This document shows positions 13,814 to 29,311 of a stretch of 64,000 nucleotides of DNA, one piece after another. Position numbers and translations under genes: made by a program. The DNA comes from Clostridia bacterium (GTDB lineage: Bacteria; Bacillota; Clostridia; Christensenellales; Aristaeellaceae). The notes beneath the pieces are model-generated. The model was not told the origin of the DNA and did not search any database. It saw nothing but the letters and a program-made list of their open reading frames with translations. The stretch spans positions 7,325-71,324 of the forward strand of contig JAFRQX010000036.1 in assembly GCA_017428385.1 (NCBI GenBank). The letters run 5' to 3'. Position 1 is the stretch's first letter; each line of letters starts with the position of its first letter.

Positions 13814-13843
13814 AAAAAACGCCCATTCCACAGGGAACGGGCG
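13814..13843 (-). terminator. Leader (attenuator) terminator upstream of ABC exporters
   Basis: Minus strand CGCCCGTTCC-CTGT-GGAATGGGCG-TTTTTT, about 25 nt before the ABC start. Confidence 0.85.
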
Positions 13844-13868
13844 GACAGTGTCAATCAAATCCGGATAA

Positions 13869-13943
13869 TCAGACAAGGCCAGATCCGGAAAAGGACGCCC
13901 GTAATTCCTGCGCGGTTCTAAAAGTTCTGAATATGCGATTCAT
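13869..13943 (-). CDS. Leader peptide MNRIFRTFRTAQELRASFSGSGLV (24 aa)
   Basis: AGGAGG RBS 7 nt before ATG; ends 25 nt before the terminator; contains the antiterminator complement. Confidence 0.75.
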   Translation of the reverse strand: MNRIFRTFRTAQELRASFSGSGLV

Positions 13944-14137
13944 TTCCGGACCTCCTTTCTTCAATTCATTCGACTTATTCAAACATAAAAAGCAGGCTGT
14001 GTCAACGGGTTGTCAGTACATTTTACAACTCTTTTACCTATACTGACAGTATGGGTTTTCAACGAAAAACCCGGCCTGCGCGAACAGACCGGGAAAAGGA
14101 GGCTGCACAGCGGACCTGTGCAGTGAACCACAAAGGA

Positions 14138-15730
14138 TTACCGCGTGAACCGGGAGATGAACTTCCAGGCGTTCTCGCAGCTGTGATGGCGGCATTCATG
14201 GATCTGGCCGCTGACGCTGGCAAAGGCGGTGCGGATGACGCCGTCCTCACTCTCGTAATAGTGGACGGTCAGGGTGCTGCCCCGGGAAGGATCATAGATC
14301 TTTTCCACCTTGTCGCCGGGGATGCCCCAGATGGGCTGCTCCCAGGAATCCTTCTGCTCAAAGGAGATGCCGTCGAACTTCTTTTTCAGCTGATTGACTT
14401 CCGCCACATACTGTACCCGCTCCAGGGCCGTGTCGGAGTGGAAAGGCAGCTCAGGCAGGTGGGATTCCTCGCCGCCGGAATAGAAGACGGGCACGGCCAC
14501 GGTCTTGTTCAGCCGCTCGGTGGGCGGGCCGCCCCAGAAGGTCTTGTAGACGGGGAAGAGGGCACTGGCGGGCATGATGCCGGCGAAGACGTCCGGATAC
14601 TCCTGGTAGCAGTCCCAGGTCTTGCCGCTGCCCATGGAGAAGCCGGTGGCGTAGATGCGGTGCTCATCGATGGGGTAGCGCTTCTTCAGGTCCTCAATGA
14701 CTTCCACCGCTTCGGTGGCGGTAACGTTCTGGTGGTTTTCCACGGAAACGAAGAGGAAGTTGTAGCGGTGGCAGATTTCCCACCAGCCGGCGACAAAGGT
14801 CAGGTACATGGAGGAGTCGCCGCCGCCGTGGAAGCCGAGCACCAGCGGGACGGGGCCGTTGTCGAACAGGCCGTTGTTGTAATAGGCGAAGTAGCCGACC
14901 TTATGGGTCTTGGCGTCCTTGATGATCCGGTTGTCGGAAGAGGTGTTGACGGTGACGCAGCCGGCGTCTTCCGTCATGTTCAGGGCCTTGAAGTCGGGCT
15001 CCAGCTCCACGTTGCCGCACCACATCTTGAAGTGCTTGACGAAGGCGTCAAAGTCCGCTTCATAATCGGCCTTGGCCTTGACGAGCAGATGCTCACAGCC
15101 GTCGAAGGCCTTGTTGATCTCTTCGCTGTTGCCGACGCTGAGGATCGGAATATCCTTGCGCTGTACGTCCGGCATTAGGCTCAGGCGCTCCATGGAGCAC
15201 ATGGCGGGGGTGATCTCGCCGGGACCCCAGAGATATTCACCCTGCAGGGAACGGAGGAGGTGCTTTGCCACATAGTCGGCGGAGGCACCGTAGCTGTAGA
15301 TGTCCGCGCGGAAGATAGCGCCGCGGACGAAATAGCCCTTGAAGGTCTGGGTGAAGAAGTCGAAGTTCTCCACGATACCGTCTTTATAAACCTGGATCAT
15401 TTTGATCTCGGCGATTACGGCAGCATAGAAGCTTTCATCCGCGCCGGCCCAGCCGCCTTCCGCGGTGGGATAGACAAAGAGCACGCTGGAATCAACGTTC
15501 GCGGCGATGTTCGCCAGGCCGGTTTCCCGGGCGAAGTCCACGGCGCTGTCCATGCTCTGCTTTTCTTCTTCGAAAACCAGCAGCAGCGGCGCGCGGAAGC
15601 CGTAGTTATTCGTCTGTCCGTCTATTTTATTATCCGGAACATATACCTTCAGAAAGAATTGATCAAAGGTATGCTCCCAGCATTTTCCTCCGGTGATGTC
15701 CCGGACCTGAGGTCTTTCCATCATGGCCAT
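14138..15730 (-). CDS. Cytoplasmic esterase (PHB-depolymerase/LpqC-like C-terminal domain; divergent N-terminal domain)
   Basis: PLVLGFHGGG, IYATGFSMG nucleophile motif, C-terminal His (GQIHE). Confidence 0.75.
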   Translation of the reverse strand: MAMMERPQVRDITGGKCWEHTFDQFFLKVYVPDNKIDGQTNNYGFRAPLLLVFEEEKQSMDSAVDFARETGLANIAANVDSSVLFVYPTAEGGWAGADESFYAAVIAEIKMIQVYKDGIVENFDFFTQTFKGYFVRGAIFRADIYSYGASADYVAKHLLRSLQGEYLWGPGEITPAMCSMERLSLMPDVQRKDIPILSVGNSEEINKAFDGCEHLLVKAKADYEADFDAFVKHFKMWCGNVELEPDFKALNMTEDAGCVTVNTSSDNRIIKDAKTHKVGYFAYYNNGLFDNGPVPLVLGFHGGGDSSMYLTFVAGWWEICHRYNFLFVSVENHQNVTATEAVEVIEDLKKRYPIDEHRIYATGFSMGSGKTWDCYQEYPDVFAGIMPASALFPVYKTFWGGPPTERLNKTVAVPVFYSGGEESHLPELPFHSDTALERVQYVAEVNQLKKKFDGISFEQKDSWEQPIWGIPGDKVEKIYDPSRGSTLTVHYYESEDGVIRTAFASVSGQIHECRHHSCENAWKFISRFTR

Positions 15731-15907
15731 GAGTATGTCCTCCTGAGATATGTTGTTTTCAATGTCTGGATTGAAACGATGAACAATCGGTCAGGTTATA
15801 TTGTATAAGGATGGGGAATAAAGGCGCAATACGCGGAAGGAAGAAGAAGAGGACAAAAAAAGCAAAAAAATGATACCGAGGGGAAGGCTCCCCCCTCGGT
15901 ATTAATG

Positions 15908-16100
15908 AATACTGAAAACTTAAAACTTAAGACTTAAAAATGGAGGATAAAACTGCTTCAGAAAGAAGCAGTTTTCAGTGTTTTAAGGCGGTGGGGAAGT
16001 TAAGAGCGTGGAAAAAGCGGCAAGAACAGTGACAGACAGTCAGTCCCCCTTGTCACATTCTTGCCGCAGTGTTGAGTGAAGAGTGTAGAGTGTAGAGTTG
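15908..16100. repeat. Mosaic intergenic repeat
   Basis: AAAACTT heptamers, aaaactgcttc..gaagcagtttt hairpin (also at 16601, 35293), GAGTG(A/T)A heptamers. Confidence 0.8.
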
Positions 16101-16205
16101 CCCTTTGGGCAGTGCAGTGTTGCATATAAGAGTCAATTTGGAATATGATATAAATACAGATAGATGAAGTGAACATATTCTGCTGTATCGAACGGAGGGT
16201 GAGAT

Positions 16206-16514
16206 ATGGGCTGGATTTCGTGGTTGATTATCGTACTGGCTGTGGGGATCCTGGCTTGTTTCGGCGTGGGGATATTCCGGAAAAAGCAGGGTTCTGATGT
16301 GCGTGATAACGGAGAACTGACAACGGGTGTCTCCTTTGATCCGGAGAAACAGGAGCCGGTGATCCGCAGTTCGATATGCACCGGAGAAAAAGTGGCGGGG
16401 TTCAAGAGTAAGGAAGACGGCCACTTTACAGAGGTGATGGTGCTCCGGACGCCGAAGGATGAGGAAAGGTTTAAGGAGATGTATCATCTGGATTCAGTGA
16501 AAACTGAATACTGA
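16206..16514 (+). CDS. Small membrane-anchored hypothetical protein
   Basis: GGAGG RBS; N-terminal TM; conserved-looking PVIRSSICTGEKVAGF segment. Confidence 0.75.
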   Translation: MGWISWLIIVLAVGILACFGVGIFRKKQGSDVRDNGELTTGVSFDPEKQEPVIRSSICTGEKVAGFKSKEDGHFTEVMVLRTPKDEERFKEMYHLDSVKTEY

Positions 16515-16539
16515 AGATGAAAAATAATGAATACTTAAG

Positions 16540-16880
16540 ACTAGATCCTTCGACTGCGCTCCCTTCGTACCGCTTGCTCAGGATGACATCTCATAAGGAA
16601 AAAACTGCTTCAGAAAGAAGCAGTTTTTTAGTATTTAAATGATTTTTTTGCTTCGCAAAAAAGAGAGGAACGAGATTTCTCCACGCGGCAGCAAGCAGGC
16701 TTGCGCAGAAGGACAGAGTGGGCACTGTGGAGAAGTGAATGGATGTGACAAAGGGACAGACCAACTATCATCATTCCAGAAGAACGTGACAGTTGGTCTG
16801 TCCCTTTGTCACATTGCGGTGTAGTGATGAGTGTAGAGTGATGAGTGAAGAGTGAAGAGTGAAGAGTGAAAAGTGTCCTC
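16540..16880. repeat. Mosaic intergenic repeat
   Basis: Contains the GATCCTTCGAC..GCTCAGGATGAC module, aaaactgcttc hairpin, GGGACAG long hairpin and GAGTGAA heptamer run. Confidence 0.85.
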
Positions 16881-16893
16881 GTTTCTTCCGCTG

Positions 16894-17844
16894 TTAGACA
16901 GCGGTTGAAATGAGGAAACGACCAAAGCCCTCAACGGAGACGTCCGGCAGGGCGGCAGGGAGAACAGCGGTTTGCCAGGGGAGAAGGGTTTCCCGGTGAT
17001 TCTCCCAGCAGAGGGTGCAGCCTTTGGCTGTGGCGGTCAGGAACTGCATTTTGCCCGTAGGCAGGGTCATCCTCCCGTCCAGGTCATAGGCATACAGCTG
17101 GAAATGAGGATCGCTGACCAGCAGCGTACGCCGACCGCCGGGCAGATCTTCGGTTTCGCTTGCCTGGCAGGGCGGCGTACCGGAGTTGGAAACGGAGATG
17201 GCCTGATCAATGTGCAGGGGCCTCGGCTTGCCATCCTTTCCGATCCGGCCCCAGTCCCAGAGACGGTAGGTGAGATCACTGGCCTGCTGGATTTCATAGC
17301 AACGGATGCCGGAACCCAGGGCATGGACGGTTCCGGCGGGAATATAGAACACGTCTCCTGCATGGACTTCCGTCCGGCAGAGGCTGCTTTCCAGCCTGCC
17401 CTCATCCAGGACAGAACGCAGGGACTGGCCATGGGTATCAATGCCGTAAACCAGCTGCGCTCCGGGAGCGGCGTCCAGGATATACCAGGCTTCGCTTTTG
17501 CCGGGCTTGCCTTCATGGGAGAGGGCATAGCTGTCATCCGGATGAACCTGGACGGACAGGGGCTGGCGGGTATCCAGCAGCTTCAGCAGGAGCGGGAAAC
17601 CGTTTTCTTCTCGGCCAGTTAAACACTTGCCCCAGAGCGGGAAGAGATCCCGCAGGGTTTTGCCGGCATATTCCCCGTTGGCAACCCGGCTTTCATGACC
17701 GGGCAGGGCGGAAACTTCCAGGCTTTCGCCGGTGATTTCATCCGGCGAGTTTTTGCCGAAAAGCTCCTTCAGCGCGTGACCGCCCCAGGGGGTCTCCGAT
17801 CCATGCCGGAAAGAGGGTACCATAACAAGCGGATAGACGTTCAT
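16894..17844 (-). CDS. manA: Class I mannose-6-phosphate isomerase
   Basis: PWGG, GESLE, FPLLLKLLD, LSVQVHP, GKSEAWYIL, GTVHA, EIQQ Zn-binding motifs. Confidence 0.92.
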   Translation of the reverse strand: MNVYPLVMVPSFRHGSETPWGGHALKELFGKNSPDEITGESLEVSALPGHESRVANGEYAGKTLRDLFPLWGKCLTGREENGFPLLLKLLDTRQPLSVQVHPDDSYALSHEGKPGKSEAWYILDAAPGAQLVYGIDTHGQSLRSVLDEGRLESSLCRTEVHAGDVFYIPAGTVHALGSGIRCYEIQQASDLTYRLWDWGRIGKDGKPRPLHIDQAISVSNSGTPPCQASETEDLPGGRRTLLVSDPHFQLYAYDLDGRMTLPTGKMQFLTATAKGCTLCWENHRETLLPWQTAVLPAALPDVSVEGFGRFLISTAV

Positions 17845-17948
17845 TTTCCTGTTCTCCTGTGTTCATTTGGGCAAAAGCAAGGCTCAGGCAGGCTGGTTCA
17901 GCCTGACAGCGGCTTTTTGCTTATGCGGTTGTCGTGTGTTAAAAACCT

Positions 17949-19451
17949 TTAGAAATCAAAGGGTTCAAGCGGCAGATTGTTCTCCCCGAAGAAGGGAACC
18001 TGCGCCGCGTAGTCTGTCCAGGCATACCGGGCATGCACCGGCTGTTTGACGCTGTCCGCACGGAGCAGCAGCCGGTCTCCTTGGAGTTCCGCCCGGGCGG
18101 GGACATAACAGCCGTCGGCACCCGCAATCTCCAGCAGGGCGGCAGTTTCACCGCGGAGTTGAACGGGCGCGGAAAGACGGATGGAAAGCGTATCTCCCTG
18201 CGGCGTCAGATCCAGTGCCCGGGGAGAAACTTCTCCGGCACCGTACAGCATGATACCGGCCAGATCCGCCAGGCGCTCGCCCACGGGGCGCTTCGCGGTG
18301 GGGTGGATATTGCCGTATTCCCCCTGGTCCAGCAGGCAGATCATCCCGGTGCCTGGTACGGCGTCCCGTACCGCGGCCTGGGCTTTGCGGAGCAGGGGCC
18401 AGCGGAAAGTTTCTATCCCGTTCTGGTCCACCCACATGGGAAGCTGCACAAACAGGAAGGGCAGAGCCTCATCCCGGAACAGTTTTCGCCAGGTGCGGAT
18501 CAGCAGGGTCAGCAGGGTATCATAGTGATCGGTTTTGCCGGTGTCCTCTTCACCCTGGTAGAACAGGATGCCGGTCAGCGTTACGGGCACAATCTCCCGC
18601 ACCATGGTGACGGCCAGCCCGGCAGGCCGGTAAGGAGAACCGGGCCCAGCCGGAGGATTCCAGGGAACAAACCCGCAGGCGGCTTCGATGTCCGCCCAGG
18701 GGGCTCCCGGATGGGACTGCTTGTACTCATCCACCTTGCTGCACCAGGCACCGAAGGTTTCCTGGAAGAGGTTCTCTTCCTCCTGCCAGGTTTCCATGCT
18801 TTTGCCGGCGGTGAGGGCTTCATATTCCTCCAAGTAGCGGACACCTTCCGGTTCGGTGCGAAGGACGTCTTCCTCCATCCAGCAGGTGACGGAGGTGCCG
18901 CCCCAGTAGCAGCCGATGATACCGACCGGGATCTCCGGCATGCGTTCCCGGAGCTTCGCGGCGAAGAAATAAGCCACCGCGCTGTTAACCCCGCCGGTTC
19001 CGGGAGAAACAGCCTGCCAGCGGGTTTCCGCCACAGCCTTTTGCTGGGCTGGGCCTTGCACGGACTGCTTCGGGACGTTGAAGAAACGCAGGAGCGGATC
19101 GTCATACTGCCGGATGATCTCCGGACCCTCGTCCGCGTTGCGCAGCTCCAGCTCCATATTGCTCTGGCCGCCGGCAAGGAAGACCTCGCCGATGGCCACG
19201 TCGTCCGCTTCGGCCTGCTCATCACCCGCCTGGATGACCAGGCGGCAGCCCGCCTGCGCTTCCTGCGGGGGCAGGGAAACCAGGAAACGGGTGCCTTCCG
19301 CCCGGGCGGAGCCTTCCCACAGGAGGGAACCCTCCCGGCTGAAAAGCCGGACGGTTACGGTCAGCCCTTCGGAGACATCCCCGAAGACCCGGATCTCTTT
19401 CCGTCTGCACAGCACTGCGCCGTCGGTGAACAGAGACGCCGGTTTCAGCAT
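17949..19451 (-). CDS. Sialate O-acetylesterase (SASA/SGNH) family carbohydrate esterase
   Basis: GEVFLAGGQSNME, LFYQGE, DxxxxxIHP motifs. Confidence 0.9.
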   Translation of the reverse strand: MLKPASLFTDGAVLCRRKEIRVFGDVSEGLTVTVRLFSREGSLLWEGSARAEGTRFLVSLPPQEAQAGCRLVIQAGDEQAEADDVAIGEVFLAGGQSNMELELRNADEGPEIIRQYDDPLLRFFNVPKQSVQGPAQQKAVAETRWQAVSPGTGGVNSAVAYFFAAKLRERMPEIPVGIIGCYWGGTSVTCWMEEDVLRTEPEGVRYLEEYEALTAGKSMETWQEEENLFQETFGAWCSKVDEYKQSHPGAPWADIEAACGFVPWNPPAGPGSPYRPAGLAVTMVREIVPVTLTGILFYQGEEDTGKTDHYDTLLTLLIRTWRKLFRDEALPFLFVQLPMWVDQNGIETFRWPLLRKAQAAVRDAVPGTGMICLLDQGEYGNIHPTAKRPVGERLADLAGIMLYGAGEVSPRALDLTPQGDTLSIRLSAPVQLRGETAALLEIAGADGCYVPARAELQGDRLLLRADSVKQPVHARYAWTDYAAQVPFFGENNLPLEPFDF

Positions 19452-19457
19452 GGGCCA

Positions 19458-20636
19458 TTACCTTCTTTCCTTCAGGTATTCCAGATTCCGGCGGATCAGG
19501 TCGGCCCGCTGGCGGACACAGTCCGCGCTGCGGAGCGGATCCTCCGGGGTATTGAACACATAGTCCTTGAGCCTCTCCAGATCCGTTTCCGCCACGTGCA
19601 TGCGGGTATCGGAAGAGGCATAGTAGATATAGACCCGGCCGTCATCATCCGCGATGGCGCCGTTGGTGAAGACAACGTTGCTCACATCGCCGGTGCGCTC
19701 CCGGCCGAGGGGACCGAGGAGCATGCCGGAGGGCTCCGCAATGATGCGGGAAGGATCATGGAGATCCGTTGCAAAGGCGTACAGCACATACCGTAGTCCG
19801 GCAGCGGTGTTCCGCACGCCGTGGGCGATGTGGATCCAGCCGCGGTCCGTCTTGATGGGCACGGCACCGGCACCGTTCTTGGACTCGGTCAGGGTGTGGT
19901 ACTTCCGGCGGGAAATGATCTTCTCCTCGCCGACGACCGGATGGGTGATATCCCCGCAAAGACCGAAACCGATGCCCCCGCCGGAGCCGGTCTCGATGAA
20001 GTCGTCCATGGGACGGGTATAGAAGGCATACTTGCCATCCACGAACTCCGGATGGAGTACCACGTTCCGCTGCTGGGGAGAATTCAGGGTAATCAGGTTC
20101 GGCAGGCGCTCCCAGGTTTCCAGGTCCTTTGTCCGGACGATGCCCGCCGCGGCAACGGCGGCGGAAAGATCGGCACTGCGGGTATCCTTGCTCTCGGAGC
20201 AGAAGACGCCGTAGATCCAGCCGTCCTCATGGGCAGTCAGGCGCATGTCATAGACGTTGGTTTCCTGCTTTTCCGTATCCGGCAGGATGACCGGATAATC
20301 CCGGAAACGGAAGCCTTCGGTAGGCTTGTCGCTTTCCGCCACGGCGAAGAAGCTTTTCCGGTCCATGCCTTCCACGCGAACCACCAGGCAATACTTTCCG
20401 TTCAGCTTGATGGCGCCGCTGTTCAGGGTGGCATTGACGCCCAGGCGCTGCATCATAAAGGGATTGGTGTCCGGATTCGCGTCATACATCCAGAAGGGAG
20501 GAATATGATCCCGGGTGAGGACAGGGTTGGCGTAGCGGGAAAAAAGGCCGTTGTAGAAGCGGGAATCAACGGGGTTGGGGAGGGAGATGAGTTGCTCATA
20601 GGATTCCATGAGGGAGGCAAAAGTGCGAGTGTTCAT
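19458..20636 (-). CDS. mgp: 4-O-beta-D-mannosyl-D-glucose phosphorylase (GH130_1)
   Basis: [63 protein letters not shown]. Confidence 0.93.
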
Positions 20637-20654
20637 AAAAACATCCTTACGTTT

Positions 20655-21010
20655 TTAGGTAGGAGGTAGGAAGTAGGAGAGAGGAGGTATTGTCTTTTGC
20701 TTCGCAAAAGAATGATATGTTGCTTCGCAACATGATATTTCGACTTAATGTCGAAATGATAGGTTCGACTGTGTCGAACATGATATGTTTGGCTTCGCCA
20801 AACGTGATTAGTTATTGACCGCCTCTGTCAGGGTGACCTTGTGGAGGAAGTGGTGTTCCGTATAGGTTGAAGGTCTATATCTCCGGAGGAGATTCTTCGA
20901 CGCGCCCGCAGGCGGGCTTGCTCAGAATGACAATCATTACGTTAGGGGTAATTCTGTAAGTTCACATTGTTCGTAATTATGAATTATGAATTGTGAATTA
21001 TGAATTATTA
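20655..21010. repeat. Mosaic intergenic repeat with five-hairpin TGATA array
   Basis: TAGGAGG-type heptamers, hairpin array 20694-20804, GATTCTTCGAC..GCTCAGAATGAC module, ATGAATT array. Confidence 0.85.
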
Positions 21011-22039
21011 ATAGTTGTGTTTTGCTTCGTCATCGCCGTAGTGGAGGACGCTGTGGGATTTGATGTAGCTGACGACGGAGTCCACGGTGGTGAAGGCCAG
21101 GCCGACATGGGTGTCGGCTGCGCCGTAGTAGATGGCGATGCGGCCGGTGTCTCCATCCTGCAGAGTAGCGCAGGGGAAGACCACATTGGGCACGAAGCCG
21201 CTGACTTCATAGGGTTCTTCCGGCGTCAGCAGGTAGTTGGCGCAGCGGTAGAGCACCTTGCTGGGCTCGTTGATATCCAGGATGGCGCCGCCCATGGAAT
21301 AGACGAAGCCGTTGCAGGTGGAGGAAACGCCGTGGTAGAAAAGCAGCCAGCCTTCAGTGGTTTCAATCGGGGCGGCGCCGGCGCCGATCTTGACGCCCTG
21401 CCACCATTCTCCGCCACTGCCCATCACATGGCGATGCTTGCCCCAGAACACCATGTCCGGGCTCTCGCTGAGGAAGATATCGCCGAAGGGTGTATGGCCG
21501 CTGTCGGAAGGCCGGGAGAAGAGACGGAAGGTTCCGTTGATCTTCCGGGGGAAGAGTACCGCGTTACGGTTGAAGGGGATAAAGGGATTCTCCAGGCGGG
21601 TGAAGGTTTTGAAGTCCTTCGTCTTCGCCATGCCGATGGAGGCGCCGTGGAAATCTCCGCACCAGATGATGTAATAGGTGTCTTCCACCTTCACGAGGCG
21701 GGGATCATAGGCGTAATGGGGCATCATGGGGTTGCCGTCTTCATCGGTGAAGGGAACCTTTTCCCGCTCCACATCCCAGTGGATGCCGTCTTTGGAATGA
21801 CCGAGGTAGACGTAGGGAACGCCGTTGACCTGCTCGCCGCGGAGCACCGCGATGTAGCCGTCTTCCCACGGCACGACGGCGCTGTTGAAAATCCGGGCGA
21901 TTTCCGGGGTGGGATTGCGGCCCAGCACCGGGTTCTCAGAGTAACGCCATACGGGAGTCTCGGTTTTCAGATCCGCAGGACGATCCTGCCAGGGGATATT
22001 GGGGAGAGAGGAGACGTTGAGCATTTTTACTTCAGGCAT
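21008..22039 (-). CDS. Beta-1,4-mannooligosaccharide phosphorylase (GH130_2)
   Basis: PVWRYSENPV, IFNSAVV, YAYDPRL, NRNAVLFPRKING, GFVPNVVFPCA. Confidence 0.92.
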   Translation of the reverse strand: MPEVKMLNVSSLPNIPWQDRPADLKTETPVWRYSENPVLGRNPTPEIARIFNSAVVPWEDGYIAVLRGEQVNGVPYVYLGHSKDGIHWDVEREKVPFTDEDGNPMMPHYAYDPRLVKVEDTYYIIWCGDFHGASIGMAKTKDFKTFTRLENPFIPFNRNAVLFPRKINGTFRLFSRPSDSGHTPFGDIFLSESPDMVFWGKHRHVMGSGGEWWQGVKIGAGAAPIETTEGWLLFYHGVSSTCNGFVYSMGGAILDINEPSKVLYRCANYLLTPEEPYEVSGFVPNVVFPCATLQDGDTGRIAIYYGAADTHVGLAFTTVDSVVSYIKSHSVLHYGDDEAKHNY

Positions 22040-28187: not shown

Positions 28188-28307
28188 ATGCAGCGTAACG
28201 GATCCAAATACAGTGAATCTATTATGATCTCCGCGAATGGCATGATGCAGATTCGCATTATTTCCGTATACGGTCATACAGTCAGAGAAGAGCAGTCCGG
28301 CATATAA
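28188..28307 (+). CDS. Leader peptide MQRNGSKYSESIMISANGMMQIRIISVYGHTVREEQSGI (39 aa; true start could be a downstream Met)
   Basis: AAAGGA 11 nt upstream; stop 14 nt before terminator; 3' codons complementary to terminator 5' arm and loop. Confidence 0.55.
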   Translation: MQRNGSKYSESIMISANGMMQIRIISVYGHTVREEQSGI

Positions 28308-28321
28308 ACCAGGATTTATCC

Positions 28322-28355
28322 AGCCGCTTATCTCTGACAGATAAGCGGCTTTTTT
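28322..28355 (+). terminator. Leader (attenuator) terminator
   Basis: 12-bp perfect stem agccgcttatct/agataagcggct plus T-run, 39 nt before the esterase start. Confidence 0.88.
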
Positions 28356-28393: not shown

Positions 28394-29311
28394 ATGATAA
28401 ACAGTCTGAAAAGATGCTGTGCCGTTCTGGCAGCGGTTCTGCTGGCAACAGCGGCGCCGGCTTTTGCGGAAGAAAAGACTGTGCGGACAGAAAGCTGGAG
28501 AATGGAAAACCGCAATGAGGTTTTTGCCTGGATTCCGGAGGGGCTTCCGGCAGAACCGGTTCCCATGGTGCTGGCGATGAACTGTACAAACGGCAATCCG
28601 CAGGCGGAAGTGAAAACCAACGGCTGGGACGTGCTGTGCGCGGAGGAGGGCTTCATTGTCATTGCGCCGGAATACAGGGACAGTGCATCCTATGAAGAAA
28701 CAGATTATCTCCGCATGGTGATTGAACAGGCGGTCAGCCGGTATCCGGTGGATCCGTCCAGGGTTTACGCCACGGGCTTTTCCAATGGCGGAGCGGCGGC
28801 GATTGCGCTGGCTTCGGAATATCCGGAACTGATCGCCGGGATTTCAGCGGCCGGGTGGCTGGTGGAAGTGAAAAACACGGAGGGGCTGCTGACGCCCTTC
28901 CAGGTGCTGAAGGGAACGGAAGAATTCACCGTCCGGAACGGGCAGGGCGATATGGAACTGATGGAAGATGAAAAGAACGCCCTGCGGACCCTGTTTGAAA
29001 TGAACCGAATGCCTTCGGGCGAAACAGATTATCACGCGGTGCCTTACTGGGGGTACAGGCCGGACCGGCAGGAAAGTATCTGGCCGGAATACAAGGACTA
29101 TCATTATTACGGCGGAAGCGGTATTCCGCAGAGCAACGTGGAGTGGCAGATCAGCGATTACTGCCTGGAAGGCTATGAAGCGCCTTTTGCCCAGCTGGTA
29201 CTGATTGAAGGCGCGGATCATACGCCGCATGATTATCATGCCAGGATTGCGTGGGATTTCTTCTCCCGCTTCAGCCGGAACACAGACGGAACGATAACTG
29301 AAAGGAAATAA
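28394..29311 (+). CDS. Secreted PHB-depolymerase/LpqC-family esterase
   Basis: Signal peptide; VYATGFSNGG nucleophile; GADHTPH. Confidence 0.85.
   Translation: MINSLKRCCAVLAAVLLATAAPAFAEEKTVRTESWRMENRNEVFAWIPEGLPAEPVPMVLAMNCTNGNPQAEVKTNGWDVLCAEEGFIVIAPEYRDSASYEETDYLRMVIEQAVSRYPVDPSRVYATGFSNGGAAAIALASEYPELIAGISAAGWLVEVKNTEGLLTPFQVLKGTEEFTVRNGQGDMELMEDEKNALRTLFEMNRMPSGETDYHAVPYWGYRPDRQESIWPEYKDYHYYGGSGIPQSNVEWQISDYCLEGYEAPFAQLVLIEGADHTPHDYHARIAWDFFSRFSRNTDGTITERK

Follow-up and report, generated by a model that had tools for sequence, protein, structure and literature searches.

A candidate ribosome-dependent attenuator with competing RNA states ahead of an ABC exporter gene pair in uncultured Clostridia

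In a 64,000-nucleotide (nt) stretch of contig JAFRQX010000036.1 from a Clostridia bacterium (hereafter the window), two genes for ATP-binding cassette (ABC) half-transporters, ABC1 and ABC2, are preceded by a leader. In this leader a promoter, a strong Shine-Dalgarno sequence (SD), a 24-codon upstream open reading frame (uORF) and an intrinsic terminator follow one another from 5' to 3'. All leader and ABC elements lie on the minus strand of the window (Table 1). Judging from the sequence and its relatives, we consider it likely that the leader is a ribosome-dependent transcription attenuator, in which three competing RNA states would gate the two-gene exporter operon. The initial annotation had proposed an attenuator at this place, driven by stalling on an Arg/Phe-rich leader peptide. 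The architecture ahead of the exporter genes was found and is conserved in relatives, whereas the emphasis on Arg/Phe-rich stalling did not hold.

The leader contains an anti-antiterminator strand at the ribosome binding site (A), an antiterminator strand that mimics the terminator 3' arm (AT) and a toggle strand (B) within the uORF, a strand that pairs with B just 3' of the stop codon (C), and the two arms of the terminator (T5 and T3). All pairings named in the initial annotation exist where it had placed them, and the uORF start likewise reads as described (AGGAGG 13956-13951, the 7-nt spacer TCCGGAA and ATG 13943-13941). AT is complementary to T5 through CGGGCG with CGCCCG and GGAA with TTCC, with a 3-nt bulge. 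A, formed by the ribosome binding site and spacer, pairs with B over 10 pairs, one of them G-U, and this pairing also sequesters the ribosome binding site of the uORF. We found a further hairpin that had gone unmentioned, in which TCCGGAT (13889-13883) pairs with ATCCGGA (13866-13860) and encloses the stop codon. The terminator has a 10-bp stem with 7 G-C pairs (hairpin -17.0 kcal/mol) and starts 25 nt past the uORF stop, and its T-tract ends 32 nt before the ABC1 ATG. It was recovered by the terminator scan, which gave 5 terminator-like sites within 700 nt compared with 0.9 expected.

The A:B and AT:T5 folds had been described as mutually exclusive. A:B directly excludes B:C, with which it competes for the same bases, as AT:T5 does with T5:T3, but it shares no nucleotides with AT. 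It blocks AT:T5 only topologically, since the two together would be a pseudoknot; the switch is therefore one of three states. The duplex of A with B (-19.9 kcal/mol, compared with -13.9 +/- 2.4 for dinucleotide shuffles) and the AT:T5 duplex (-18.3 kcal/mol) both fall in the top ~2% of shuffles. The stability of the whole-leader fold was unremarkable (z = -0.55), which is normal because a switch has competing folds. Within the window alone, the evidence against chance is moderate.

These elements suggest the following mechanism. In the off state A would pair with B, closing the ribosome binding site of the uORF, T5:T3 would form and transcription would end in the T-tract, short of ABC1. This state would be expected without a ribosome on the leader, when A:B would form first and the terminator next. 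It would also be expected with normal translation, when the ribosome would cover AT, then B and C, and finish at the stop codon in the B:C loop. In the on state A would be covered by a ribosome that is held on the start codon or within the first ~6 codons; B would pair with C, AT would pair with T5 around B:C, and with the terminator blocked RNA polymerase would enter the ABC genes. B would act as the toggle, turning the operon off with A and on with C. Termination and readthrough in vivo would presumably correspond to these two outcomes.

Conservation and covariation of the leader

When protein sequences were searched with ABC1, relatives of graded identity were returned, and the DNA around twelve of them was compared. 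Leader-bearing relatives were L021 (96% ABC1 identity), L020 (95%), L016-L019 (90%), L014/L015 and L006 (81%) and L010/L096 (76%). Five leader lineages, including that of the window, precede orthologous ABC pairs with the same order of elements. Conserved across these lineages are the promoter with its 5' motif, the SD and ATG, the open frame, the position of the stop, the terminator and four complementarities, A:B, B:C, AT:T5 and T5:T3. The terminator begins 25-30 nt past the uORF stop throughout. As far as sequences can tell, it is this conservation across lineages that gives the observation its decisive support.

Helix statistics were taken from a 9-sequence leader alignment. For T5:T3, 95.6% of the cells were paired and 3 pairs had changed on both sides. 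For AT:T5 together with B:C, 83.7% were paired, and none of 500 shuffles reached the covariation score (0/500). This set includes a compensatory G-C to A-U change in AT:T5 (alignment columns 75:136), a compensatory A-U to G-C change in B:C found in three sequences (columns 90:109) and a further compensatory change at columns 68:140. The core CCGG of B is invariant. When the 3' partners were slid by 1-3 columns, pairing decreased in all three helices, most steeply in the terminator. In each lineage the best upstream partner of T5 lies at uORF nt 47-50, save in L014, whose frame is 12 nt longer and where it lies at nt 60; this repeated co-location is hard to ascribe to chance on the sequences at hand. 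An alternative register, AAAGGA/GTCCG with CGGGC/TCCTTT, is the minimum-free-energy fold of the window. We rejected it because it was 73% paired, without covariation, compared with 88.6% for the A:B register.

The uORF itself shows a characteristic pattern of conservation. The distance from SD to ATG is 7-9 nt and the ATG is invariant in all five lineages. The frame has 24-28 codons and differs in length by +12, +3, -3 or 0 nt, all multiples of three, so that TCC-GGR is always read in frame as Ser-Gly. The stop falls 6-7 codons past the conserved Ser, inside B:C, in the five lineages. We infer that the uORF is translated. Its predicted product reads M(N/I)RIFR(T/A)F(R/I)T(A/T)QE(L/I)RASFSGSGL(V/I) in the window and L021 and MNRIFR(T/A)FTT(T/A)Q(E/K)TRAAFSGP... 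in L016 and L020; those of L014, L006 and L010 are MSLFTSRAAGRAAAPEKRAAFSGSGCFR, MFTANERYPFPGSRAVLSGSVCFR and MTPMTTVVIAVPNGRLAFSGPASAR, respectively. The conserved C-terminal R-A-x-F-S-G-(S/P) falls exactly on the RNA strands AT and B, and because of this coincidence the conservation of R-A-x-F-S-G is explained by RNA pairing. The N-terminal halves cannot be aligned among the five lineages; the unrelated ones begin MSLFTSRAAGRAAAPEK.., MFTANERYPFPGS.. and MTPMTTVVIAVPNG.., and RIFR-F is retained only in relatives with an ABC1 at least 90% identical. The proposal that the Arg/Phe-rich RIFRTFR is a conserved sensor is therefore not supported by the other lineages. Comparison of the leader peptides revealed nothing that requires selection on the peptide.

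Among ABC1 relatives the leader is limited to a clade at 76% ABC1 identity or above. A search of a genome collection with ABC1 returned only 56-61% relatives, none with the leader, and it was not found upstream in L011-L013 (64-68% identity). A metagenome scan with the promoter-proximal motif gave 120 stretches, nearly all of them chance matches; one was a true leader, L096, which is nearly identical to L010. A covariance model of the leader, applied to the window and 15 loci, found nothing beyond its own training sequences and generic terminators. One weak match to this model (20 bits), at 28282-28354 of the window on the plus strand, was considered as a second leader and rejected, being an ordinary terminator (CCGCTTATCTCTGACAGATAAGCGG and a T-run) that follows a gene and precedes an open reading frame (ORF) at 28394.

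Folding with a ribosome on the leader and the rival explanations

Folding of the alternative conformers, which the initial annotation had named as a check, was carried out on seven leaders (the window and six others) with the ribosome modelled as 29 unpaired nucleotides. It predicted that an early stall alone favours the antiterminator. In the ribosome-free full leader, A was paired to the 3' part of the uORF and the terminator was formed in the window and in 5 of the 6 other leaders; the B:C hairpin was present in the minimum-free-energy folds of all lineages. Folds of growing prefixes of the window leader revealed that A pairs with the region of the AT 3' end and B from ~80 nt until T5 is out, with the A:B register at ~95-105 nt. 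At 151 nt the state with A paired and the terminator formed lies 9.5 kcal/mol below the antiterminator state. With the P site at codons 1-6, B:C plus AT:T5 was the best fold before synthesis of T3 in six of the seven leaders (not in L014). With the P site at codon 9, where the ribosome covers part of AT and frees A, the pre-T3 folds contained no antiterminator, save for a partial form in L010.

At equilibrium, the probability of the terminator was 0.01-0.26 in L006 with the ribosome at codons 1-4 and in L010 at codons 1-2; it fell to 0.5-0.9 in L016 and the window and was unchanged in L014, L020 and L021. We discarded equilibrium folds for testing the switch, since under any mask most sequences settle into the terminator, and it is the kinetic stage before T3 that is informative. 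Stalling at the conserved C-terminal motif was likewise rejected as the on signal, a ribosome there covering AT, so that termination is predicted.

These results bear on the nature of the signal. Because the N-terminal peptide is unconserved and the stall window lies at initiation and early elongation, the inducer is most likely a general or early arrest of translation, such as that caused by ribosome-targeting antibiotics, and not a specific nascent peptide. The suggestion that the exported substrate is the inducer was not supported. A more specific version, which we put forward tentatively and regard as doubtful, starts from the fact that the uORF's own SD and spacer make up a strand of the anti-antiterminator. 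The sensor would then be tuned to ribosomes arrested at initiation or in the first codons, and it would switch on a hitherto uncharacterised heterodimeric exporter with canonical sites, an inducible determinant of drug efflux or resistance in Clostridia of the rumen that meet antibiotics in feed (lincosamides, streptogramins, pleuromutilins and phenicols). A still bolder variant would have the R-A-x-F-S-G-(S/P) codons constrained at the level of both RNA and peptide.

Several findings weigh against an attenuator of this kind. There are only five independent lineages, which makes the covariation statistics weak and, for what sequences can tell, suggestive rather than conclusive; A:B is almost without covariation. 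L007-L009, at 77% ABC1 identity, are an exception within the leader-bearing clade: they keep the promoter and terminator and are without the uORF, AT, B and C. The L007-type leader would be an attenuator in decay or else a promoter with constitutive damping. The 56-68% relatives are without the leader, and their upstream regions are short and unrelated. Metatranscriptome contigs had flat, low depth across the terminator and the end of the upstream gene; these contigs may include DNA, and attenuation is neither shown nor excluded by them. The predicted energetics also raise difficulties. Without a ribosome, the antiterminator is favoured over the A:B state by a margin of 2-4 kcal/mol at 141-146 nt, so that an off state without translation needs kinetic trapping. 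In the window the equilibrium probability of the terminator is at least 0.88 at every ribosome position; antitermination must therefore be kinetic, as is usual for attenuators. Finally, the exclusivity of A:B and AT:T5, being topological, is partly a product of pseudoknot-free prediction.

The identity of the sensor separates the attenuator that we favour from two of its rivals. In one, nascent RIFRTFR would stall the ribosome, alone or with a drug or substrate, as ErmCL, ErmBL and MsrDL do. RIFR-F is indeed invariant in the six close variants, one change within it being synonymous (CGC to CGT, Arg3); codons 2, 7, 9, 11, 13 and 14 around it vary among them, and RIFRTFR overlaps codons 1-6, where folding places the stall window. 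However, a 12-nt conserved run is not significant among such close sequences, three more distant lineages combine the common RNA architecture with unrelated N-terminal sequences, and a +x+ (R/K-x-R/K) motif is absent from the leader peptide. Different lineages could each respond to a drug of their own; peptide-specific arrest is nonetheless weakened, and we consider it improbable. In the other, the RNA would work untranslated, the GGAGG/CCGG strand serving for pairing alone and a ligand, protein or small RNA choosing between A:B and B:C plus AT:T5, with the uORF incidental. A 24-codon open frame is expected by chance with a probability of ~0.3, and the conserved parts of the peptide all fall on AT and B, the N-terminal part being unconserved. 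Yet in all lineages a strong SD precedes an invariant ATG by 7-9 nt, insertions and deletions come in multiples of three and the stop is fixed relative to B:C in the five lineages. Neither a conserved unpaired pocket nor a repeated protein-binding motif was seen, and an Rfam scan at E up to 10 returned nothing beyond noise (best scores at most 22.8 bits compared with gathering scores of 49.5-102, under unrelated small-RNA names). We judge an untranslated switch to be unlikely as well.

The remaining two rivals dispense with conditional control or change what is sensed. Promoter, SD, ORF and terminator make up a complete minimal gene, and L007-type relatives have a promoter and terminator without the uORF. 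The uORF might accordingly be a stand-alone small-protein gene, with the ABC genes expressed through leakage of the terminator or from an unrecognised promoter and no conditional switch. We regard this as very unlikely: the gap between the T-tract and the ABC1 ATG is only 32 nt and holds no promoter-like site, AT follows the changes in T5 across lineages, which a plain terminator would not require, and a small functional protein is unlikely because the peptide sequence is unconserved. An amino-acid-starvation attenuator of the trp/his/leu type, sensing charged tRNA through a run of regulatory codons, would share the layout of leader ORF, antiterminator and terminator, and the window uORF does have four Arg and three Phe codons. 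But the uORF has no tandem runs of a single codon, its Arg/Phe content is unconserved and the genes it precedes code for exporters rather than for biosynthesis, so that this reading is scarcely credible.

Organization and distribution of the locus

The features of the locus are collected in Table 1. Ahead of the leader, the tandem terminator hairpins of the esterase-like gene are also kept in L006, L007, L016, L020 and L021, and they are predicted to insulate the leader from upstream transcription. The promoter pattern TTGACA-N17-TGnTT(G/A)AAT was present in all relatives compared, and transcription is predicted to start at ~13970. A promoter scan found no promoter-like site in the interval between the terminator and ABC1. 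The A/T-rich motif occurs once in the window and is kept in L006, L010, L014, L016, L020 and L021. Its consensus, TGTAAAAT(T)GTACT(G/T)ACAA, sits just 5' of the -35 box, and parts of it are tandemly repeated in L010 and L006. In the promoter scan, TAAAAT within this motif appeared as a possible -10 box paired with CTGTCA (14049-14044). The motif might act as an UP element or as an activator site, or it might be a second promoter or -10-like box, which suggests an extra layer of control at initiation besides attenuation.

Table 1. Coordinates of the leader, the exporter genes and adjoining features in the window
Feature	Coordinates	Strand	Details
Esterase-like gene	14138-15730		530 aa; upstream of the leader
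Two tandem intrinsic terminators of the esterase-like gene	stems 14123-14103 and 14093-14070	-	terminator scan
A/T-rich motif	14027-14010	-	TGTAAAATGTACTGACAA; directly 5' of the -35 box; conserved
Predicted promoter, -35	14005-14000	-	TTGACA; followed by a 17-nt spacer; read from sequence
Predicted promoter, TGn and -10	13985-13977	-	TGtTTGAAT (TGn + -10 TTGAAT); read from sequence
SD of the uORF	13958-13951	-	AAAGGAGG; AGGAGG at 13956-13951
Segment A	13952-13943	-	GGTCCGGAAA; SD end, spacer and first ATG base; anti-antiterminator 5' strand
uORF	13943..13869	-	24 codons + TGA (13871-13869); encodes MNRIFRTFRTAQELRASFSGSGLV
Segment AT	13908-13896	-	GGAATTACGGGCG; codons 13-16; antiterminator strand
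Segment B	13891-13882	-	TTTCCGGATC; ORF nt 53-62, codons 18-21; toggle strand
Segment C	13866-13860	-	ATCCGGA; just 3' of the stop codon
Terminator arm T5	13843-13834	-	CGCCCGTTCC; followed by loop CTGT
Terminator arm T3	13829-13820	-	GGAATGGGCG
Terminator T-tract	13819-13814	-	T6
ABC1	13782-11920	-	620-aa fused permease/ATPase half-transporter; SD GGGAG 13795-13791
ABC2	11923-10142	-	593-aa half-transporter; start overlaps the ABC1 stop by 4 nt

ABC2 is the presumed heterodimer partner of ABC1 because the two genes overlap by 4 nt, and the pair is syntenic in L006, L010, L014 and L016. Both proteins are of the ABCB/MsbA type, with matches to Pfam ABC_tran and to MsbA-like NCBIfam models, all under the equivalog cut-offs, and ABC1 matched ABCB1 and MsbA in the PDB. 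ABC_tran lies in the C-terminal third of both proteins; their membrane domains do not reach the Pfam ABC_membrane model. Many bacterial heterodimeric exporters have one degenerate ATP site. ABC1 and ABC2 both carry Walker A, the signature, Walker B followed by Glu (D-E) and the H-loop His, and neither ATP site looks degenerate, since both proteins keep the consensus motifs. In ABC2, PSGGEQQK replaces the usual LSGGQ start of the signature. By the criteria of their genes, ABC1 and ABC2 would form a heterodimeric type-IV (ABCB-like) exporter, the heterodimer being presumed, and drugs are among its possible substrates.

Some variation was seen in the relatives. In L020 (1010-1330), ~160 extra bases lie between the -10 box and the SD of the uORF, with the junction corresponding to window 13975/13976. 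Over its first ~35 nt the insert is similar to the beginning of an L014-type leader (GAAGA..AGG..AAATGAGTCTGT), and it contains a 35-codon ORF with R-F-S-G; a second, tandem leader may once have stood here and left it as a remnant. A sheep-gut run (X6) has this junction as well as the uninterrupted allele. In L007 (2880-3000), and also in L008 and L009, the terminator consists of GCTCATTCCGCAGTGAATGAGCGG and then GTTTGTTT, and the ABC2 gene of L007 is split into two called ORFs. In L011 (583-1491), the relative with 68% identity, the gene for an XRE-type regulator (HTH_3/HTH_31) ends 10 nt before ABC1, in the place of the leader, which suggests that different clades of the exporter family may use different control devices. 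On the other side of the leader, the minus-strand genes at 14138-22039 of the window resemble a cluster for utilisation of mannan and mannooligosaccharides, with two GH130 phosphorylases, a type I phosphomannose isomerase, a SASA-type acetylesterase and a PHB-depolymerase-like esterase. This cluster is unrelated to the ABC unit, and two terminators lie between them.

The exact leader of the window occurs unchanged in sheep and cattle gut metagenomes of different studies; in the sheep and cattle DNA runs it was identical, with no extra variation. Runs with at least 81% of the leader's sampled words include anaerobic-digester metagenomes, and the relatives are annotated as Lachnospiraceae, Acetatifactor or Clostridia metagenome-assembled genomes. 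In one metatranscriptome run (X26), a low-depth contig skips 66 nt (window 13853-13918), from about codon 9 to just before T5. With such a skip AT, B and C would be lost and the terminator kept; strain variation or faulty assembly may account for it.

Comparison with known attenuators of resistance genes

The closest likeness in gene arrangement is bmrB-bmrCD of Bacillus subtilis, in which a translated leader ORF precedes a heterodimeric ABC exporter encoded by two genes (Reilman et al. 2014, PMC4191407). An anti-antiterminator, an antiterminator and an intrinsic terminator are predicted in bmrB, translation of the leader is required, and readthrough into bmrCD is induced by lincomycin, chloramphenicol and erythromycin (PMC4191407). 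Both systems have a leader ORF and three predicted structures ahead of an ABC exporter pair. They differ in that BmrB has 53 aa and the bmrB coding sequence itself contains the terminator (PMC4191407), whereas the window uORF has 24 codons and its terminator lies past the stop. The anti-antiterminator of the window, unlike that of bmrB, contains the uORF's own SD, and no sequence similarity was seen between the two leaders. As a further difference, both ATPase sites of the window pair look canonical. BmrCD was not among the best 60 PDB matches of the ABC pair, and no direct comparison was run.

In mechanism, the early stall window predicted for the window leader is matched most closely by vmlR of B. 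subtilis, where the uORF lies in the anti-antiterminator and lincomycin or retapamulin stalls initiation (Takada et al. 2022, PMC9226507). Arrest at or near initiation keeps the anti-antiterminator from forming and so leads to the antiterminator and to bypass of the terminator, and variants of the uORF sequence are tolerated (PMC9226507). The vmlR uORF has only 3 codons (MIN), however, and the gene under its control codes for an ABC-F ribosome-protection factor of the cytoplasm rather than for a membrane exporter. vmlR also has extras of its own, namely a hairpin that sequesters the SD of the main gene and NusG-dependent pauses (PMC9226507); neither was seen in the window leader, where no search aimed at them was made.

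In patAB of Streptococcus pneumoniae, a Rho-independent terminator lies directly upstream of a heterodimeric ABC exporter pair, an antiterminator and anti-antiterminator are predicted, and mutating the terminator relieves repression of the pump (Baylay and Piddock 2015, PMC4319486). No leader peptide is described there, and the leader is much shorter, with transcription starting 67 nt from patA (PMC4319486). patAB is thus an instance of terminator-based attenuation of such an exporter for which no leader peptide is known. In ermK, mef/msr and msrD, an antibiotic-induced stall on a short leader ORF favours the antiterminator (reviewed in PMC5418344). These systems depend on specific peptide motifs and cognate macrolides, whereas the window leader has no conserved motif outside its RNA-constrained part.

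If our interpretation is correct, the window would hold the second leader-peptide attenuator of a heterodimeric ABC exporter after bmrBCD, from uncultured Clostridia of the ruminant gut and digesters, and the exporter pair would be a candidate inducible efflux system. It would also be a compact natural case in which the ribosome binding site of a uORF serves as one of the strands of the anti-antiterminator, with a clear, testable prediction of which class of arrest (initiation or early elongation) induces. The five lineages, with their conserved RNA and free N-terminal peptides, would amount to a natural mutagenesis series. The understanding of attenuation would be unchanged; a specialist would find the leader unsurprising, a clean example in uncultured rumen Clostridia. 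Most likely, it is a previously undescribed member of a well-known class, the ribosome-dependent attenuators of drug-pump and resistance genes, and by analogy it would work like vmlR and bmrBCD while being homologous to neither leader.

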